This document shows positions 1 to 6,840 of a stretch of DNA of 6,840 nucleotides, piece by piece (position 1 is the first letter of the stretch; every line of letters starts with the position of its first letter). This stretch comes from a virus (lineage: Duplodnaviria; Heunggongvirae; Uroviricota; Caudoviricetes). Where the stretch lies: the IMG/VR virus record IMGVR_UViG_2606217104_000017, one strand, 5' to 3'. Both the position numbers and the translations under genes were made by a program. The notes under the pieces were generated by a model, which saw nothing but the letters and a program-made list of their open reading frames with translations, had not been told where the DNA came from and did no database searches.

Positions 1-594
1 CTCCGGGGTAAAAAGGTCCGTACGACCATCAGCCGGAAAGCCGTTGCCGCAGGCGACCGCGTAAACCGTCAGTTCGTGGCAGAACGACCTGACCAGCTGT
101 GGGTGGCTGATTTTACTTACGTCAGCACATGGCAGGGCTTCGTCTATGTGGCGTTCATCATTGATGTGTTTGCCGGATACATTGTGGGGTGGCGGGTCTC
201 ATCGTCCATGGAGACGACATTCGTGCTGGATGCACTGGAGCAGGCGTTATGGGCCCGTCGACCGTCCGGCACGGTCCATCACAGTGATAAAGGTTCTCAG
301 TATGTATCGCTGGCCTACACACAGCGGCTTAAGGAAGCCGGATTACTGGCATCAACAGGAAGTACAGGCGACTCGTATGACAACGCGATGGCGGAGAGCA
401 TCAATGGTCTTTACAAAGCGGAGGTAATACACCGTAAGAGCTGGAAAAACCGTGCAGAAGTGGAACTGGCCACACTCACGTGGGTGGACAGGTATAACAA
501 TCGACGATTGCTGGAAAGGCTGGGCCATACTCCTCCGGCAGAAGCAGAAAAAGCTTATTATGCTTCCATCGGAAACGATGATCTGGCAGCCTGA
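1..594 (+). CDS. IS3-family transposase OrfB (DDE integrase-core domain), IS629/IS1203-like; 5' end cut by the window edge
   Basis: Frame +1 is open from nt 1 with no stop until TGA at 592-594, so the ORF-track start at 76 (GTG) is internal and the gene is truncated by the window. The translation LRGKKVRTTISRKAVAAGDRVNRQFVAERPDQLWVADFTYV...HHSDKGSQY...DNAMAESINGLYKAE carries the D, D, E catalytic residues with IS3-family spacing. Assignment to IS629/IS1203 is from memory, not a search. Confidence 0.9.
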   Translation, partial: LRGKKVRTTISRKAVAAGDRVNRQFVAERPDQLWVADFTYVSTWQGFVYVAFIIDVFAGYIVGWRVSSSMETTFVLDALEQALWARRPSGTVHHSDKGSQYVSLAYTQRLKEAGLLASTGSTGDSYDNAMAESINGLYKAEVIHRKSWKNRAEVELATLTWVDRYNNRRLLERLGHTPPAEAEKAYYASIGNDDLAA

Positions 595-636
595 GTTCAC
601 AGATAAAATACTCTCCAGGAAACCCGGGGCGGTTCA
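1..636 (+). mobile_element. Right-hand part of an IS3-family insertion sequence (IS629-like); right terminal inverted repeat at 611-636
   Basis: 611-636 ctctccaggaaacccggggcggttca is the reverse complement of TGAACCGCCCCGGGTTTCCTGGAGAG, an IS3-group style terminal repeat ending in the canonical ...CA-3', 42 bp after the transposase stop. The left end and OrfA lie outside the window. Confidence 0.75.
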
Positions 637-757: not shown

Positions 758-2032
758 TTATTGTTTCTGAGCAAACTCAAACGGCCTGACCATCCCATCC
801 CGGTTTGCATCAAGATAATCTGCCCACCACTGTAGCATCAACCTTCGCTGCTCAAGATGTTTGGCCTTATGGGTATAGGCAGCACGAACGCTGTTGCTTT
901 CCTTGTGGCTCATTTGAAGTTCTACCGCATCTTCAGACCATAGCCCTGATTCAATCAGAGCACTACATGCCAGCGTGCGGAAACCATGACCGCAGATGTC
1001 CTGCGTGGTGTCATAGCCCATCTTACGTAGCGCTTTATTGATGGTGTTTTCACTCATGGGCTTGAACGAGTCATAACAGCCCGTAAAAATTAACCCCGCC
1101 TCATTACCTTCTTCATAGGTAAGCTGGCGGATCTCTTTCAGTATTTTAAGAGCCTGCCTGCAGAGGGGAACGAAGTGCTGGCGTTTCATTTTTGCGCCAC
1201 GCGTGGAATATTTGACGCGCTCAATCGCTTCACGCTTTTCTGGTATTACCCATAACTTACTGTTGAAGTCGATTTCTGACCATCGTGCATAGCGGAGTTC
1301 ACTGGAACGAATGAAAATCAACAGATTGAGTTTAATCGCCAGTGTAGTTAGTCCACGACCTTTGTAGGCATCAATACGTTCAAGCAGTAGCGGGATCTCT
1401 TCCAGCTCCAGTGCAGGGCGGTGTTCCGTCTCTGGTTTCTGGACAGCGCCTTCCATATCATAGGCCGGATTATGACGCATAAGCTTTTGCTGGACGGCAT
1501 GACGTAGGATCGCGGTGATGTATTGCTTAATCCGCATGGCAATTTCAAGGTAGCCGAGTGTTTCTGCATTTTTAATCGGAACAAGCAGATCACCCGTATC
1601 CAGATCTGAAACGTTGCTGTCGCCAATATCCGGGAATACATAGGTCTCAAGGCGCTTCCATACCGTATCGGCGTAATCTTCTGACCATTTTGTTTTGGTG
1701 GCAAACCAGCTTCTGGCGACGACACGGAACGAACGGGTTTTATCCCGCTTTTCCTGCAGCGCTTTTTCATCAGCCAGTTTTTTAGCGTTAGGATCGACTC
1801 CCTGAGCAAGCAGCTTTTTTGCTTCATCACGTCGTTGTCTGGCATCAGCAAGAGAAACCGCAGGGTAAACACCAATGGAAAACACTTTCTGTTTACCATC
1901 GAAGCGATAGCCTAACTGCCAGTATTTTGAACCATTGGGATGCACAAGAAGGTAGAGACCAAATCCATCAGTGAGCTTGACGGCTTTTTCCGCTGGTCTG
2001 GCATTTTTTACTTTAGTATCAGTAAGTGACAT
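758..2032 (-). CDS. int: P4-family tyrosine integrase (site-specific recombinase), 424 aa
   Basis: Translation begins MSLTDTKVKNARPAEKAVKLTDGFGLYLLVHPNGSKYWQLGYRF, the characteristic P4-type integrase N-terminus. Catalytic motifs are present: R in IRSSELRYARWSEID, HGFR (box II His/Arg), Tyr nucleophile in RAAYTHK, and the C-terminal EQRRLMLQWWADYL signature. The true start is the ATG at 2032-2030, preceded by GGAGGG with 7-nt spacing; the ORF-track start at 2098 is an upstream TTG and adds 22 residues encoded by the repeat region. Stop TAA at 760-758. Confidence 0.9.
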   Translation of the reverse strand: MSLTDTKVKNARPAEKAVKLTDGFGLYLLVHPNGSKYWQLGYRFDGKQKVFSIGVYPAVSLADARQRRDEAKKLLAQGVDPNAKKLADEKALQEKRDKTRSFRVVARSWFATKTKWSEDYADTVWKRLETYVFPDIGDSNVSDLDTGDLLVPIKNAETLGYLEIAMRIKQYITAILRHAVQQKLMRHNPAYDMEGAVQKPETEHRPALELEEIPLLLERIDAYKGRGLTTLAIKLNLLIFIRSSELRYARWSEIDFNSKLWVIPEKREAIERVKYSTRGAKMKRQHFVPLCRQALKILKEIRQLTYEEGNEAGLIFTGCYDSFKPMSENTINKALRKMGYDTTQDICGHGFRTLACSALIESGLWSEDAVELQMSHKESNSVRAAYTHKAKHLEQRRLMLQWWADYLDANRDGMVRPFEFAQKQ

Positions 2033-2049
2033 GACGGTTCCCTCCGCGT

Positions 2050-2096
2050 GCTGGTAAAACGCAAATCGAACCAGCTTTACCAGCATTTTTACCAGC
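2050..2096 (-). promoter_or_regulatory. Three copies of a 9-bp motif (TTTACCAGC direct at 2076-2084 and 2088-2096; inverted copy GCTGGTAAA at 2050-2058) just upstream of the P4-type integrase start
   Basis: Exact repeats seen directly in the sequence, 18-64 nt upstream of the integrase ATG on the minus strand. Function (operator, integrase arm-type sites or promoter element) is inferred. Confidence 0.3.
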
Positions 2097-2176
2097 AAAG
2101 TAGTGTGGGTTCGAGCGATTTTTAACGAACGAGGGTGAACCTGAAGAAGGGAGTAACCAGTTGATATAAATGCAGA

Positions 2177-2202
2177 AAGCAGACGTCAGTGAACGTCTGC
2201 TT
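2177..2202 (-). terminator. Hairpin 10 nt downstream of tRNA-Asn (candidate tRNA terminator or processing stem)
   Basis: aagcagacg (2177-2185) / cgtctgctt (2194-2202), 9-bp stem with 8-nt loop. On the minus strand it is followed by TCTGCATTTATAT, a moderate U-tract. Confidence 0.45.
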
Positions 2203-2211
2203 CCCTTAAAT

Positions 2212-2287
2212 TGGCTCCTCTGACTGGACTCGAACCAGTGACATACGGATTAACAGTCCGCCGTTCTACCGACTGAACTACAGAGGA
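2212..2287 (-). tRNA. asnT: tRNA-Asn (anticodon GUU), 76 nt with encoded CCA
   Basis: Reverse complement of 2212-2287 is TCCTCTGTAGTTCAGTCGGTAGAACGGCGGACTGTTAATCCGTATGTCACTGGTTCGAGTCCAGTCAGAGGAGCCA, matching E. coli tRNA-Asn as recalled, with anticodon loop CU-GUU-AA. The locus name asnT is by synteny with adjacent mtfA; E. coli has several identical asn tRNA genes, so the symbol is tentative. Confidence 0.97.
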
Positions 2288-2305
2288 ATCGTGTGAACGG
2301 GGCGC

Positions 2306-2334
2306 ATATTACTTAGCGGTACCTTGTCTGTCAA
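2306..2334 (-). promoter_or_regulatory. Sigma70 promoter for tRNA-Asn: -35 TTGACA (2334-2329), 17-bp spacer, -10 TAATAT (2311-2306), then GC-rich discriminator GCGCCCC (2305-2299)
   Basis: Consensus -35, optimal spacer, near-consensus -10 and a GC-rich discriminator typical of stringently controlled stable-RNA promoters, placing the transcription start about 10 nt before the mature tRNA 5' end (2287). The AT-rich region 2335-2387 with two copies of GTTAATTAAT could be an UP element or FIS sites. Confidence 0.65.
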
Positions 2335-2387
2335 CACTAAATTTCATAAGTCATTTCAATTGGTTAATTAATCTGCAAAGTTGTTAA

Positions 2388-3185
2388 TTAATGAACATTC
2401 GTCGCCGAAAACGAGTCTGTATCATTAGTGCGATGTAGTCTCTGCAAAGGATCTTGTTGATAAAATTGGCAGAAACGTTGCCACAATGAAGGGAAACGAG
2501 GAGCAAAAAGTTCTGGGGCGCTAAAGAAATATTCAGAAAGTACGGCAAAACATTCAGCAGGATCACTGGCAGCATAAGCATCAATGCTCGCCGCATTCTC
2601 GCCAACCAATTCGATTTCTTCCTGAATGTTGTTCATTGCAGCATGAAGATCGTGTTCCCAGCCAGCAACCTCACGCAACGGAATAAAGGGAACTCCGCTG
2701 GCGCGATCGCCGTTACGGGTGTCCAGCTTATGAGCGACTTCATGAATAATCAGGTTAAAACCAGAAGCATCAAAAGAATCTTGTATATCCAACCAGTTCA
2801 AAACGATAGGCCCTTGCTGCCAGCTCTGACCTGACTGAACAATACGTTGGTTATGCACCAGACCGATATCGTCTTCCCATTCATCATCGACCACAAATGG
2901 CGCAGGATAAATTAAGACTTCATGAAAACCATCCAGCCATTCCAGTCCTAACTCCAGAACGGGTAGGCAAAATAGAAGTGCTATCCGGCAGCTTCTTAAT
3001 GAATCCAGTTCAAAGCCCTGTAAAGGAACAAGCCGCTTTTGCTGTAAAAAACGTTCGGCAAGAGTGACTAATTTGCTTTGTTCCTGTTCCGTCAGACACG
3101 TTAAAAGGGGGATCGATAGTGCTTCCTGCCAGGGAAGGGCAGTTTGATGTGCTGATTCTTGTACTTTCCAGGGCCACTTAATCAT
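2388..3185 (-). CDS. mtfA: MtfA (Mlc titration factor A / YeeI), zinc-dependent peptidase-like protein, 265 aa
   Basis: Translation [61 protein letters not shown]...[10 protein letters not shown]... matches E. coli MtfA as recalled, including the HEVAH metallopeptidase motif. The true start is the ATG at 3185-3183; the ORF-track start at 3224 is an upstream GTG. Stop TAA at 2390-2388. Confidence 0.9.
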
Positions 3186-3234
3186 CGTTTTGCTCGCAAA
3201 CTCGTCACTTGAACAAAATTGCACGGACAGGGAC

Positions 3235-3243
3235 TGTTAAAAT
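3235..3243 (+). promoter_or_regulatory. Possible extended -10 element (TGtTAAAAT) for tRNA-Ser
   Basis: TGnTAAAAT lies 36 nt upstream of the tRNA 5' end. No convincing -35 at 17-bp spacing (TTGAAC at 3209-3214 is 23 bp away), so this is a weak call. Confidence 0.25.
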
Positions 3244-3278
3244 GCCAAATTTCCTGGCATCATGGCAACCATCTGAAC

Positions 3279-3368
3279 GGAGAGATGCCGGAGCGGCTGA
3301 ACGGACCGGTCTCGAAAACCGGAGTGGGGGCAACTCCACCGGGGGTTCAAATCCCCCTCTCTCCGCCA
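3279..3368 (+). tRNA. serU: tRNA-Ser (anticodon CGA), 90 nt with long variable arm and encoded CCA
   Basis: GGAGAGATGCCGGAGCGGCTGAACGGACCGGTCTCGAAAACCGGAGTGGGGGCAACTCCACCGGGGGTTCAAATCCCCCTCTCTCCGCCA: class II tRNA with anticodon loop CU-CGA-AA (3312-3314), T-stem GGGGG/CCCCC and 3' CCA. It is divergent from mtfA, as serU is in E. coli K-12 (recalled synteny). Confidence 0.97.
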
Positions 3369-3413
3369 AAATTCAATCACTTATACATCATTAAGTCAGT
3401 GACAAAAATCACA

Positions 3414-3460
3414 CTTGGAATTACTTGGAATTACTTGGAATATTTTCTTGGAATATTTTC
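3414..3460. repeat. Tandem direct repeats: 2 x CTTGGAATTA (3414-3423, 3424-3433) then 2 x CTTGGAATATTTT (3434-3446, 3447-3459); candidate integrase arm-type binding sites at attL
   Basis: Exact tandem copies seen in the sequence. They straddle the integrase stop codon (3433-3431), and the last nine integrase codons (ENIPRKYSK) are encoded by the 13-bp repeat pair. A nearby palindrome GTCAGTGAC sits at 3395-3403. Confidence 0.8.
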
Positions 3461-4456
3461 AGGTAACGGGACATCAAGTGTCGGTGAAACTTTAACCTTC
3501 CTGTCATAGATTAGCACTTGCCCCTCGGTTTTGTGACCAGAGAAAAGTTGCTTATCCCGACTGCTTCCTTCATAGTCTGAAATTCCTTTCGCCTTCAGAT
3601 CATGAAAGGTGAAGTCGGTTAAAATACCTGAAATTTTGCCTGCGCGATTTCTTGCTTCTACCCACATTTCGTTAAAGCCTTTGTACATATATCGGTTGCC
3701 GTATTGATTACTGATTACATAGGCGGATGTTGGTAACTGTTTTGCTTTTTCGATCGCCGCCTGTAATCGTGGACTCCATGCTTTTATCTGTTTTTTTCCT
3801 GTTTTCCCTTGCTGGATAAAGATTCCGTCGTTTCCAATCTGCTCCCATTTCAGCGATAACACATCGGAAACCCTCGCTGCACACAGATAGGCAATTTCCA
3901 TTGCGATAAAAACAGGAAGAGGTGCAACGCTTAATACTGCCTGGTATTCTTTGTCGGTTACATATCGTTCGCGGTTTTTGGCCTTGAATTTACTTACACC
4001 TGCACATGGGTTAGCCTTCACGTACCCTCGCTCATACCCCCAACTGTAAACGCGGGACATACTGCTTTTTTCATGGTTGGCTTGCGTTTTACTCTGTTCC
4101 CCTCTCTTGTCCATGTATCGACGGATGTGTTCTGGTTTTATGGAATCTGCCGGCACCTTACCGAATACGGCAAGCAACTTTTTTTGATGTTGCAGATAAT
4201 CTTTTTGTGTTCTTGGACTGAGGTCACTGTAATAGGCGCTGGCGAGGAATTTTTCCCACAAGCGACCGAATGTCATTGCACGATCGCGATTATTTACAGT
4301 TTCCTCATACTTTTTCCATAAAGCAGCTAAACCATCCTTGATGGCGGTTAGTGTGACAGATTCTCTGGATGTTGGTTTCCATACATAACTATATTTATTT
4401 GGGTATACATTTGGAGGTAGTTTTTCGTGTTCAGGATTTTTCCTTCGTCTTCCCAT
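3431..4456 (-). CDS. int: Lambda-family tyrosine integrase, 341 aa
   Basis: N-terminus MGRRRKNPEHEKLPPNVYPNKYSY resembles the lambda Int arm-binding domain (lambda begins MGRRRSHERRDLPPNLY, recalled). The catalytic region has R195 (CAARVSDVL), box II TFHDLK (H285, with K288 where Arg is expected), H308 (SGHKT) and the Tyr nucleophile Y317 (LIYDRK), with the 9-residue H-to-Y spacing of lambda Int. Start ATG at 4456-4454, stop TAA at 3433-3431. Confidence 0.9.
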   Translation of the reverse strand: MGRRRKNPEHEKLPPNVYPNKYSYVWKPTSRESVTLTAIKDGLAALWKKYEETVNNRDRAMTFGRLWEKFLASAYYSDLSPRTQKDYLQHQKKLLAVFGKVPADSIKPEHIRRYMDKRGEQSKTQANHEKSSMSRVYSWGYERGYVKANPCAGVSKFKAKNRERYVTDKEYQAVLSVAPLPVFIAMEIAYLCAARVSDVLSLKWEQIGNDGIFIQQGKTGKKQIKAWSPRLQAAIEKAKQLPTSAYVISNQYGNRYMYKGFNEMWVEARNRAGKISGILTDFTFHDLKAKGISDYEGSSRDKQLFSGHKTEGQVLIYDRKVKVSPTLDVPLPENIPRKYSK

Positions 4457-4659
4457 TAGATTGCACCAAAATTCGGCTCTACCTCGCGTGGTGGTAAAGT
4501 TTTATTGCAGGTAAATAGATCCCGGCTGACAATCGGTTTGCCACTACGATTGGTATAGAACGGAAGCCCGTTTTCCGTTAACCATTTTCGCTGGTGGCTT
4601 GCATATTTGCAGCCCGTTAATATTAGCAATTCATCTTCGGTTAAAAATAAGTTGCTCAT
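4456..4659 (-). CDS. xis: Small excisionase-like protein (recalled as DUF4224-type, often found upstream of phage integrases), 67 aa
   Basis: MSNLFLTEDELLILTGCKYASHQRKWLTENGLPFYTNRSGKPIVSRDLF has the size, position and motif pattern of the small integrase-coupled excisionase-like proteins, as recalled. Its TAA stop (4458-4456) overlaps the integrase ATG by one nucleotide (TAATG), implying translational coupling. Excisionase function is inferred from context. Confidence 0.6.
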   Translation of the reverse strand: MSNLFLTEDELLILTGCKYASHQRKWLTENGLPFYTNRSGKPIVSRDLFTCNKTLPPREVEPNFGAI

Positions 4660-4717: not shown

Positions 4718-6838
4718 TTAAAAATCAGCCTGACTCGGGATCAGTTTTTGCCAGATAACTGAAACGTATTTTGCCTGGTAACGGGCGTCATCAAGTGCAT
4801 TATGGCGCTCACCTTCGAATGGAATAGCCGTTCTGGCATCGAAGTCTATGGCTTTCCCCAGCTCAACGATTGTGCGTACATCGCGATCGTTGTAGTAACG
4901 CCACGGGCAGGGGATCCCCTGCCGTTCGTATGAACGGCGCAAAATCGTGTTGTCGAAGTTGGCTCCATTTCCCCAGACCTGAACAAAAAATTCACCGGAG
5001 TTTTCGTCGATAAATTCCCGCAATTGTAACAGTGCATCATCTAACTGGATTTCATCGGTCATAATGGCAGATTGCGCTTCGCGTGATTGCTTAAGCCACC
5101 ATTTAATGGTGTCCCGATCAATGACTCCGCCAGCAGTTTCCAGATCGATAGTCTTACTAAATTCCGGTCCCATATCTCCGGTTTGCGGATCGAAAAATAT
5201 TGCACCTATTGAGATGATCGGGGCATCAGGATTTTTTCCCATGGTTTCAAGGTCGATCATTAGATGGTCACACGTCCTGCTGGTGGATGTGATTTCTTGA
5301 TGACCGTTCACCTTAATTGAGTGATCTGCCGTCTCGCCAGTTTCATTATCGCTGGCATGATGCTGATTGCCGCCAGTGTTCTCCTTGTGTGGATGTTCAG
5401 CGCCTTCCATTTTCTCCGGATCATCTTCCTGAACTTCAACCTGATACTCTTCATCGAATGTTTCCTGGTATGTTGCGTCGCCCATCACCGCGCCACAATC
5501 AGGGCAGTTGCCGCCGCCGGTCTGACCGCAGGCGGTGCAGACTTTTTCCACTTCCTGTTGCGCCACTGGTTCAGGCTGTTTCGTTTCTGGCTCGTTTTGT
5601 AACGCATTTGGGCTGTTTTGTTCCGCTTTTTGGTAGTTCCGTTCCGATTCATGCTGGTTCTGGTTTACAGAATCGCGGGTCTGGATCCCCTTAACCCATT
5701 TCGGATCATTCGGGTCGCTAATCCCTGCAACAAATTCTCCGCGAGAGGCAGCAAGCAACTTATCGGCGTCAGGCTGGCTGATATTGGCTGCCTGCATAAT
5801 TTTGTTTACTTCGTCAGCGGTAACTTTTACCGGCTCTGGTTGTGCGGTCGTGTCAGATGCACCAGTATTTTGTTGTGAACCTGAGTATGTACTGTTTTTG
5901 CGGGCGAAATATTCTTCTTTCGTGATTTCAGTAGCCCCGGCAGCCAGTGCCTTATCCAGACCAGAAAGTTTGTTTGCGCGACCGTATTTTTCGCCATCCT
6001 TGTCGGTGAAGAGGAAGTAGAACGGCCCCTCACGCTCTACAGATGGTTCGACTTCCACTTTGCATTCGGTTTTTTCGTTGTCCGGAATTGCCGTTTCCAC
6101 TGCATCAGTTTCTGGTACTGACGACGAGAGAGTATCAGTTGCGCTCTGATTTGTTCCTTCATCTTCAAACACGCCCTTTGTAGTCAGGTATTCAGTAATG
6201 TATTTGTTCAGTGCCACAGGGTCTTTGTGAATGTCGATCGGACGTTCACGGACAAGGCCAAAAATAGTCTGGCGGTCGTAGCGAAGGGCATCAGGCTGTT
6301 TGCGCATTGATGTCGAGATACGCTTCCAGTCTTCGCGGTCGTTGTCGATAACTTCATTTTTTGCCCAGCGATGGATGCTGCCGTCAATGTTTCCGGCATC
6401 CACATCACCAGGCCAGAGAGCGTAGGCCAGTTCGTCATCCAGTGTTTTCCATGTCTGCTTGTATTCGCGATGAATGGCAGCAATGACCGGGCTGATTTTT
6501 CCTGTTGAATTTTCAGTGTGCTGTTGATTGACTCTGGCGCGGGCGAGATCAACAACAGACGTGTATTTTCCGGTTTCCTTGCGTTCACCTTCGCGACGTT
6601 TTTTCCAGATGCGCATCTCTGCCTGAATTTCGGGCCATTTGGCACCAGGCTTACATTTATGCTTAACCCACCCGATGGCATGCAGCTTAAGCTCCGGATA
6701 CATGGCGTTAACTTCTGGCATTTTCATCAACGCTTCAACGATATGTCCGTTGAATGTTGCCATGTCTTCCTGCAACAATTCCTGTGCGCTAATAACCATA
6801 TCAACGGTGATGTTTTCACATGTGTCGAACTTAACCAT
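4718..6838 (-). CDS. Large prophage protein (706 aa) with C-terminal DnaQ-like DEDDh 3'-5' exonuclease domain, central acidic low-complexity linker with a C4 zinc ribbon, and an N-terminal region of uncertain homology; possibly 5'-partial
   Basis: The C-terminal roughly 185 residues (about 4718-5280) carry Exo I MIDLETMG (D528, E530), Exo [10 protein letters not shown] (D628) and Exo [12 protein letters not shown] (H679-x4-D684) in canonical DEDDh order. The zinc ribbon [16 protein letters not shown] (C-x2-C-x8-C-x2-C) is encoded at 5495-5539. Residues about 400-520 are strongly acidic and Q/N/E/H-rich. The ATG at 6838-6836 is only 2 nt from the window end, so the real start may lie upstream. 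Stop TAA at 4720-4718. Confidence 0.8.
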
Positions 6839-6840
6839 GA

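Follow-up and report, generated by a model that had tools for sequence, protein, structure and literature searches.

Results

A 6,840-nucleotide stretch of DNA catalogued as viral (IMG/VR virus record IMGVR_UViG_2606217104_000017; hereafter the window, by which we mean the whole stretch that was analysed) is the known asnT–mtfA–serU locus of Escherichia coli, bordered on its two sides by one end of a P4-type island and one end of a lambda-like prophage. We regard it as highly probable that both tRNA genes of this segment have been used as attachment (att) sites, each by a different integrative element. The entire window is E. coli DNA, with its best matches in O111 enterohaemorrhagic E. coli (EHEC) chromosomes at 98-99.9% identity. 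The features that define the locus are the following.

758-2032, minus strand: P4-type tyrosine integrase, 424 amino acids (aa), intact (Pfam architecture; similarity to P4 Int)
2211-2235, no strand assigned: att identity block at the tRNA-Asn 3' end (17-bp attO; 25-bp repeat in strain SCEC020001)
2212-2287, minus strand: tRNA-Asn(GTT), asnT (ARAGORN; exact match to K-12)
2388-3185, minus strand: mtfA, Mlc titration factor, Peptidase_M90 (Pfam E=4.6e-60; 265 aa, ATG at 3185)
3279-3368, plus strand: tRNA-Ser(CGA), serU (ARAGORN)
3307-3368, no strand assigned: 62-bp att identity block of the serU prophage (60/62 repeat at the attR of strain 8E)
3431-4456, minus strand: lambda-type tyrosine integrase, 341 aa, intact (full-length lambda Int alignment)

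An earlier reading made from the letters alone (the original prediction) had described two tRNA genes about 1 kb apart, with mtfA and these flanking genes as the only core between two horizontally acquired elements, and comparison with K-12 bears this out. ARAGORN places tRNA-Asn and tRNA-Ser 991 nt apart and divergently transcribed; mtfA, annotated as such in all relatives, is the sole gene in the gap and the sole core protein gene of the window, and a promoter-like site lies at 2306-2334, near asnT. BLAST aligned only positions 2208-3384 with K-12 MG1655, and inspection at the level of single bases moved the points of divergence to 2210/2211 and 3368/3369, each the 3' end of a tRNA gene, so that the true homology spans about 2211-3368, with serU differing from K-12 at two positions. 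The predicted precision of both junctions is thus attained to the base, and the two elements do run in opposite directions, each from the 3' end of its own tRNA gene.

The integrases are of the two kinds that had been proposed. The protein encoded beside asnT shares 50% identity with phage P4 Int along its whole length (residues 1-415 of 424 aligned with 5-413 of 439, E=5e-153) and 49% with the integrase of the high-pathogenicity island (HPI), and it has the domains Arm-DNA-bind_3 (PF13356, 2.5e-28), Phage_int_M (PF22022, 1.7e-24) and Phage_integrase (PF00589, 2e-20). The protein encoded beside serU aligns with lambda Int along the full length (its residues 1-313 with 1-338 of 356; E=8e-13; phmmer; PDB 1z1b/5j0n/1z1g) and has the N-terminal MGRRR...LPPN arm-binding motif in common with it. 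By BLASTP the two integrases are unrelated to each other (E=3.3). The claim that both are full-length also stands, as the exact 424-aa and 341-aa proteins recur in other assemblies, the former being found in 44 collection blocks and the latter listed in 7,251; the serU integrase is judged full-length because the exact protein is so widespread and its homologues measure 329-346 aa.

The asnT junction and its island

The island side of the left junction comprises three further features.

2033-2210, no strand assigned: island-side arm of the asnT attL (terminator scan; arm comparison)
637-757, no strand assigned: island DNA downstream of the integrase gene (colinear with 8E, in which nothing interrupts it)
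1-636, plus strand: IS3-family insertion sequence (IS) of the IS629/IS1203 type, right-hand part (Pfam rve/rve_3/rve_2)

At 2211-2227 the window carries TTGGCTCCTCTGACTGG, the exact reverse complement of the 17-bp attO published for asn-tRNA islands, CCAGTCAGAGGAGCCAA (PMC2801613), and in the repeat pair of SCEC020001 this block extends to 25 bp. Within the window the attO is present in a single copy, with no second one before the window ends inside the IS. The integrase starts at the ATG at 2032, and 179 nt separate it from the asnT 3' end (2212); the mechanically called open reading frame (ORF), which runs to 2098, is longer by 22 codons because it begins at an upstream TTG. Pairwise alignments with P4 Int and HPI Int show, by inspection, that the catalytic motifs IRSSELR, GHGFRT and SH...RAAY are identical in all three proteins, and that Arg I, His-x-x-Arg, His and Tyr are all conserved. 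In the arm between integrase and tRNA gene, the 40 nt next to the att core match the attL arm of SCEC020001 exactly, and a terminator scan found a 14-pair GC-rich terminator-like hairpin with a T-rich tail at 2174-2205 on the minus strand, directly 3' of asnT and within island DNA. The hairpin appears to be a replacement terminator for asnT supplied by the island.

SCEC020001 has a 21,577-bp island whose integrase region is 94.6% identical to that of the window and which lies between perfect 25-bp copies of the asnT 3' end; we conclude that the family to which the island of the window belongs consists of genuine site-specific integrative elements. Distal repeats of the tRNA 3' ends, which the original prediction had anticipated on both sides, are found in this strain for asnT (25 bp) and in the O111:H8 strain 8E for serU (62 bp, see below), whereas the asnT islands of O111 strains have none. 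The island is not the HPI, a candidate that we rejected on the 49% identity of the integrases and on the IS and the non-HPI ORF that come next in the window; the HPI would have ybtS and the ybt/irp/fyuA genes after the integrase, and no ybt genes were found in relatives with an identical asnT integrase.

The original prediction had looked to the cargo outside the window for novel content, an expectation that the relatives do not support. Cargo found with an identical integrase consists of an 83-aa ORF, a SMODS nucleotidyltransferase with an S-4TM effector, a PilV shufflon protein, a PilS-type pilin, TraD and a MobA/MobL relaxase; on this side, as in the lambdoid prophage with nleC on the other, the genes are of known kinds. 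Moreover, in all five O111-type complete genomes examined that keep the S-4TM gene, it is split into three fragments, and in O111 islands mobQ is frameshifted and pilV truncated by IS1203, while the P4-type integrase itself stays intact as its cargo decays. In its closest relatives and this lineage the asnT island is a decaying remnant, unpromising for new content, and the island of the source genome is probably likewise an IS-disrupted, decaying remnant.

Two observations on these relatives may be added. The SMODS-type nucleotidyltransferase (331 aa) adjoins the S-4TM effector (305 aa) to form a minimal defence pair resembling a cyclic-oligonucleotide-based antiphage signalling system (CBASS) (locus L020, 12300-14216; L001, 17182-19097). 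SCEC020001 also shows tandem accretion at asnT, with an island of the window type directly before a complete HPI (L033, 13637-44100, together with L010, 1-21591); the attL arm of this HPI is identical at 198 of 200 positions to that of an avian pathogenic E. coli strain, and no distal repeat was found on its fyuA side.

The IS element that cuts the island

The IS at 1-636 had no place in the original prediction. The C-terminal part of its transposase (rve domains) is encoded at 76-594, and its terminal inverted repeat ends in ...CGGTTCA at 636, where it meets island DNA 120 bp past the stop codon of the integrase. Positions 637-687 are the final 51 nt of the 83-aa island ORF, which the IS interrupts; the uninterrupted counterpart lies in 8E (L006, 20001 onward, with a hypothetical coding sequence at 19800-20051). 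Plasmid-borne IS3-family copies match the IS at 99.8% identity, and the IS1203 copies of O111 strains match it at 95.9%. The 636|637 junction, however, is identical in nucleotide sequence to that of the O111:H8 strain 2009C-3675, in which the island carries on past the IS. Of the 636 positions, 26 set the window apart from every O111 IS1203 copy, 22 of them within 156-393 and none within 1-155. Going by this pattern, the element looks like the same insertion as in 2009C-3675 with a patch of IS-to-IS gene conversion; an independent insertion at the same junction is less likely, because 22 of the 26 differences cluster in 156-393.

The IS also bears on the most serious alternative, in which the asnT 'element' of the source genome is an orphan integrase and the IS marks an IS-mediated deletion of all cargo together with yeeJ/yeeL, so that no part of the island would reach past the window. 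Just this has happened in the O111:H- strain 11128, where IS1203 abuts a truncated yeeL on its far side and the integrase on its near side, no cargo is left and the integrase is the only survivor; other relatives have different IS-linked truncations reaching yeeL (L027, L029; E2863), and a distal att repeat occurs in no O111 relative. On the other hand, the IS1203 of 11128 sits 82 bp nearer the integrase and thus records a different event, and the window shares its own junction with 2009C-3675, a simple insertion with island beyond it. Since the junction matches that strain, a simple insertion is likelier than a deletion in the source strain, and we consider the orphan integrase possible, though clearly the less probable state of affairs.

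Both ends of the window, at 1 and 6840, fall within multi-copy sequence, namely an IS that can occupy as many as ~49 places in a genome and a gene for an exonuclease common to several lambdoid prophages. Because of this the window is probably a complete short-read contig broken at repeats. Exact-protein look-ups returned many places with the exact integrase proteins, yet none with the full configuration of the window, and the exact 31-nt IS/island junction was absent from the genome and metagenome contig collections scanned for it.

The serU junction and its prophage

The right junction continues into three features of the prophage.

3369-3430, no strand assigned: phage P' arm of attL (sequence comparison across loci)
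4456-4659, minus strand: excisionase (DUF4224), 67 aa (Pfam DUF4224; phrog_1266, E=1.7e-21)
4718-6840, minus strand: prophage exonuclease with an Exo VIII-like N-terminal part and an Rv2179c-like 3'-5' exonuclease domain (Pfam; phrog_2082)

The att identity block of this element begins on the 5' side of the anticodon stem, covers 62 bp up to the tRNA-Ser 3' end and reads CGGTCTCGAAAACCGGAGT[A/G]GGGGCAACTC[T/C]ACC...CGCCA. It was delimited in 8E, in which a 50.7-kb lambdoid prophage extends from serU to yodB with nleC at the far end, next to yodB, and has a complete set of lambdoid genes, from those for replication to those for tail fibres. Its attR consists of the 62-bp serU repeat (60/62) followed by a K-12-type yodB-side flank. 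The two variable positions are informative. In the window the variable arm of the functional serU holds G3326/C3337, a compensatory pair in place of the A/T of K-12, and the displaced attR copy of 8E has the K-12 bases A/T at the same two positions. With G/C in the functional tRNA gene and A/T in attR, the 3' part of the tRNA gene would be phage-derived and the crossover would lie to the left of 3326. Among 25 occupied loci, 24 have the G/C pair together with the phage arm, and we regard this signature as supportive rather than decisive for a phage origin of the 3' part. At the empty serU of SCEC020001 (L010, ~22643-22732) a phage-type pair is also present, perhaps as a scar of excision, perhaps as no more than a polymorphism.

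The arm next to the block is repetitive. The window has just four copies of CTTGGAA(T) (CTTGGAAT), all within 3414-3454; they start at 3414, 3424, 3434 and 3447, and the last two overlap int at its 3' end. Two further copies, one of them inverted, stand in the P arm beside the attR of 8E. These repeats are candidate arm-type binding sites for Int. An extra 10-bp unit, ACTTGGAATT at 3413-3422, accounts for four copies of the motif in the window as against three in all eight other occupied loci examined; the possibility that it alters the C-terminus of Int was rejected, as the unit falls after the stop codon. A phage record, ON470583.1, was considered as a source of a clean attP and rejected, as it holds tRNA-Asn, mtfA, tRNA-Ser and a second integrase. 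This record (vB_EcoS-689R5, a partial genome; L003, 1-2600) includes part of the P4-type integrase and is either a mis-delimited prophage or packaged host-flanking DNA.

The catalytic residues of the serU integrase, R195, K218, H285, K288, H308 and Y317, are invariant in its clade and depart from the canonical R-K-H-R-H-Y set in one place: K288 (codon near 3593-3595) occupies the Arg II position (lambda R311), with HDLKAKG where lambda has HELRSL. This Lys is invariant in 13 homologues ranging from Escherichia to Dickeya, Sodalis, Gilliamella and Hamiltonella, members of a lambda-family clade spread across Enterobacterales, so that we rejected the view that it is an inactivating mutation. Arg II is 99.1% conserved, with a few natural Lys cases, and Cre R292K is active but ligation-defective (PMC2943603). 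Judged from the alignments, K288 is a clade variant and not a lesion, a case of rare but documented natural variation; the replacement of Arg II by Lys throughout an integrase clade is the most unusual detail of the window. One may speculate, as a long shot, that a shift between cleavage and ligation in the Lys enzyme might make excision of Sp14-type prophages poor and leave them 'parked' at serU and, separately, that the intact P4-type Int of O111 strains might act in trans on other asn-tRNA islands, the HPI for example.

RefSeq annotation by the NCBI Prokaryotic Genome Annotation Pipeline (PGAP) flags the serU integrase as 'frameshifted' in unrelated lineages (L006, 22759-23809; L007, 4193-5240; L008, 4193-5243; L011, 5189-6239). 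We rejected the idea that this denotes a broken gene, as the ORF is an uninterrupted 341 aa in the checked loci and the exact protein is very widespread. Of the flagged loci, L006 and L008 have the uninterrupted frame; by strain or record it was seen in 8E, a soil isolate and ON470583.1, and the integrase of O157:H7 F7508 (L007) differs only by an in-frame 3-nt deletion. The flag probably reflects a mismatch with a longer reference model.

Behind the integrase, the excisionase ORF overlaps the start of int by one base, and the exonuclease follows. It matches positions 118-823 of 823 of the phrog_2082 profile, with about 117 N-terminal codons lying beyond the end of the window; relatives have 813-823 aa, and the 706 codons in the window are intact. 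In O111 strains the int-xis-exo module has been destroyed in several independent ways, and in the window it is intact. IS1203 is inserted in int in 95NR1, and a partial IS copy is present in 8B (equivalent of window 4283-4289; L001/L005). In E2863 and 2009C-3675 a deletion fuses int to exo, and 11128 has that same deletion together with IS1203 in exo (L004, 21722-24109; L031, 14903-18588).

These broken modules favour a second alternative, which we consider unlikely, in that the serU element could be a degraded remnant, or a non-phage island like PAI-536-serU or PAI-CFT073-serU (22 kb, TcpC) that keeps the int-xis-exo module. Many O111 strains do have the module broken by IS1203 or by the int–exo deletion, content behind the identical integrase is mosaic (L012 has genes that resemble T3SS (type III secretion system) effectors, as well as IS elements, directly behind xis), and serU in uropathogenic E. 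coli (UPEC) hosts 22-kb pathogenicity islands (PAIs; PMC7545054). In the window itself, however, neither int nor xis nor the visible 706 exonuclease codons show any damage, the full lambdoid gene set is found in the closest relatives whose integrase ORF is uninterrupted (8E), and a typical lambdoid early region is found at most places with the identical integrase. With its left end intact as far as visible, unlike that of several O111 relatives, the prophage at serU, which in relatives carries T3SS effector genes, may still be excisable.

How common double occupancy is

The frequency of each state was counted in 5,426 complete E. coli genomes. The K-12-type empty junction is present at asnT in 2,679 (49%; about 51% are without it) and at serU in 3,856 (71%; about 29% without it), and this comparison with the empty locus, which the original prediction had called for, establishes that both flanks are accessory. 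The asnT integrase of the window type occurs in 318 genomes, and the serU attL and integrase as in the window in 1,096 (20%). Both window-type integrases are found together in 57, and the window-type serU integrase together with an HPI-type asnT integrase in 491, so that, counting those two combinations alone, at least 548 genomes (10%) are doubly occupied. The view of the locus as a recurrent hotspot is likewise upheld, the identical serU integrase standing beside at least five different asnT states. The idea that the flanks are ancestral core DNA lost by K-12, to which one may concede the trivial point that K-12 is a single reference strain, is exceedingly improbable in the face of empty junctions in 49% (asnT) and 71% (serU) of these genomes, junctions exactly at tRNA 3' ends, direct repeats of the tRNA ends bounding elements in relatives, and integrases of phage and island types.

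Neither the hotspot nor its double occupancy is new. Adjacent PAI-serU and PAI-asnT elements have been tabulated for UPEC 536 and CFT073 (PMC7545054), and serU is a routine prophage site in E. coli that produces Shiga toxin (STEC), often with T3SS effector genes (PMC8767318, PMC7067040, PMC8190617). The arrangement is thus already known and ordinary: asnT and serU are textbook E. coli integration hotspots, and the significance of the present case lies mostly in correct annotation.

Discussion

Several observations weigh against the reading of both tRNA genes as attachment sites of different integrative elements. The 6,840-nt window contains the distal att site of neither element. For asnT, the O111 relatives have no distal repeat, they have lost yeeJ and part of yeeL, and in 11128 nothing of the island but the integrase survives. 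For serU, one occupied locus (L014) has A/T and one empty locus (L010) has G/C, and the sampled loci are not independent of one another. As for activity, Lys stands in the serU integrase at the near-universal Arg II position, where the same change in Cre lowers activity and impairs ligation (PMC2943603). In O157 Sakai, the prophage at serU is Sp14 (PMC8190617), whose integrase is apparently intact and which yields PCR-detectable circles after mitomycin C (PMC2669165), an indirect point in favour of the reading; against it, the Xis of Sp14 has been judged probably non-functional (PMC2669165).

The use of both tRNA genes as attachment sites by different elements nevertheless remains the reading that we hold highly probable, and it leads to the following proposal for the origin of both junctions. 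On the left, a P4-family Int would have recombined the attP of a circular island with the last ~17-25 bp of tRNA-Asn; asnT would have stayed intact, and the integrase gene, with a terminator brought in by the island, would have come to lie directly downstream of it. At a later time an element of the IS629/IS1203 type would have hit this island at 120 bp from the integrase, on its far side. On the right, serU would have been recombined with a lambdoid attP, in which the 3' part of serU is present as a 62-bp copy, by a lambda-family Int that comes with an excisionase. This crossover was most probably in or near the anticodon stem-loop, and the functional tRNA-Ser would be a hybrid with a phage-derived 3' portion, beyond which would follow in order the P' arm with its CTTGGAAT motifs, int, xis and the early-left exonuclease gene. 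That either integrase is active at present, and that the window's own elements still have distal ends, we can only infer.

Comparison with known systems

The nearest published counterparts of the whole arrangement are PAI-536-serU (PAI VII536) with PAI-536-asnT (HPI, PAI IV536) and PAI-CFT073-serU with PAI-CFT073-asnT, where both sites of the same locus are filled and ~1.6 kb of core lies between them (PMC7545054). The two cases differ in content. Relatives of the asnT island of the window carry SMODS/S-4TM, pilus and relaxase genes and not yersiniabactin genes, and the serU element begins like a lambdoid prophage and not like a 22-kb TcpC island.

On the serU side alone, the prophages of EHEC and STEC (O157 Sakai Sp14; O111, O121:H19 and O145:H28) share with the window its attL and the module made up of integrase, excisionase and Exo VIII-type exonuclease, and an O157:H7 strain is 98.6% identical to the window across core and integrase. 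Compared with these prophages, the window has one more 10-bp unit in the P' arm (four CTTGGAAT as opposed to three), and its serU integrase, unlike that of several O111 strains, is unbroken by IS1203 or deletion.

On the asnT side, the islands at asn-tRNA genes with P4-family integrases, namely the HPI and its family of integrative and conjugative elements, EhGI1 and the pks island, have the identical 17-bp attO (PMC2801613) and a P4-type Int at the 3' end of the asn tRNA gene. Relatives of the window island share with them tandem accretion with the HPI (SCEC020001) and cargo of the mobilisation type. The island differs in the lineage of its integrase, which is distinct at 49-50% identity to HPI and P4 Int, in the 25-bp identity block of the single intact pair seen, and in that the O111 island is degraded and fixed.

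Phage lambda itself offers the model for the serU element. In both, xis lies immediately upstream of int and overlaps it, int adjoins attL and is transcribed towards it, and repeated motifs occur in both att arms, those of the serU element (P' arm of the window, P arm of 8E) being candidate binding sites; the serU Int would, as judged by its alignment, be a heterobivalent enzyme like lambda Int, with the arm-binding motif and with core-binding and catalytic domains alignable over the full length. Its target, however, is a tRNA gene with a 62-bp identity block and not an attB between gal and bio, its Xis belongs to the DUF4224 family and not to that of lambda Xis, its sequence similarity to lambda Int is low (E=8e-13), and throughout its clade Lys takes the place of Arg II (lambda R311).

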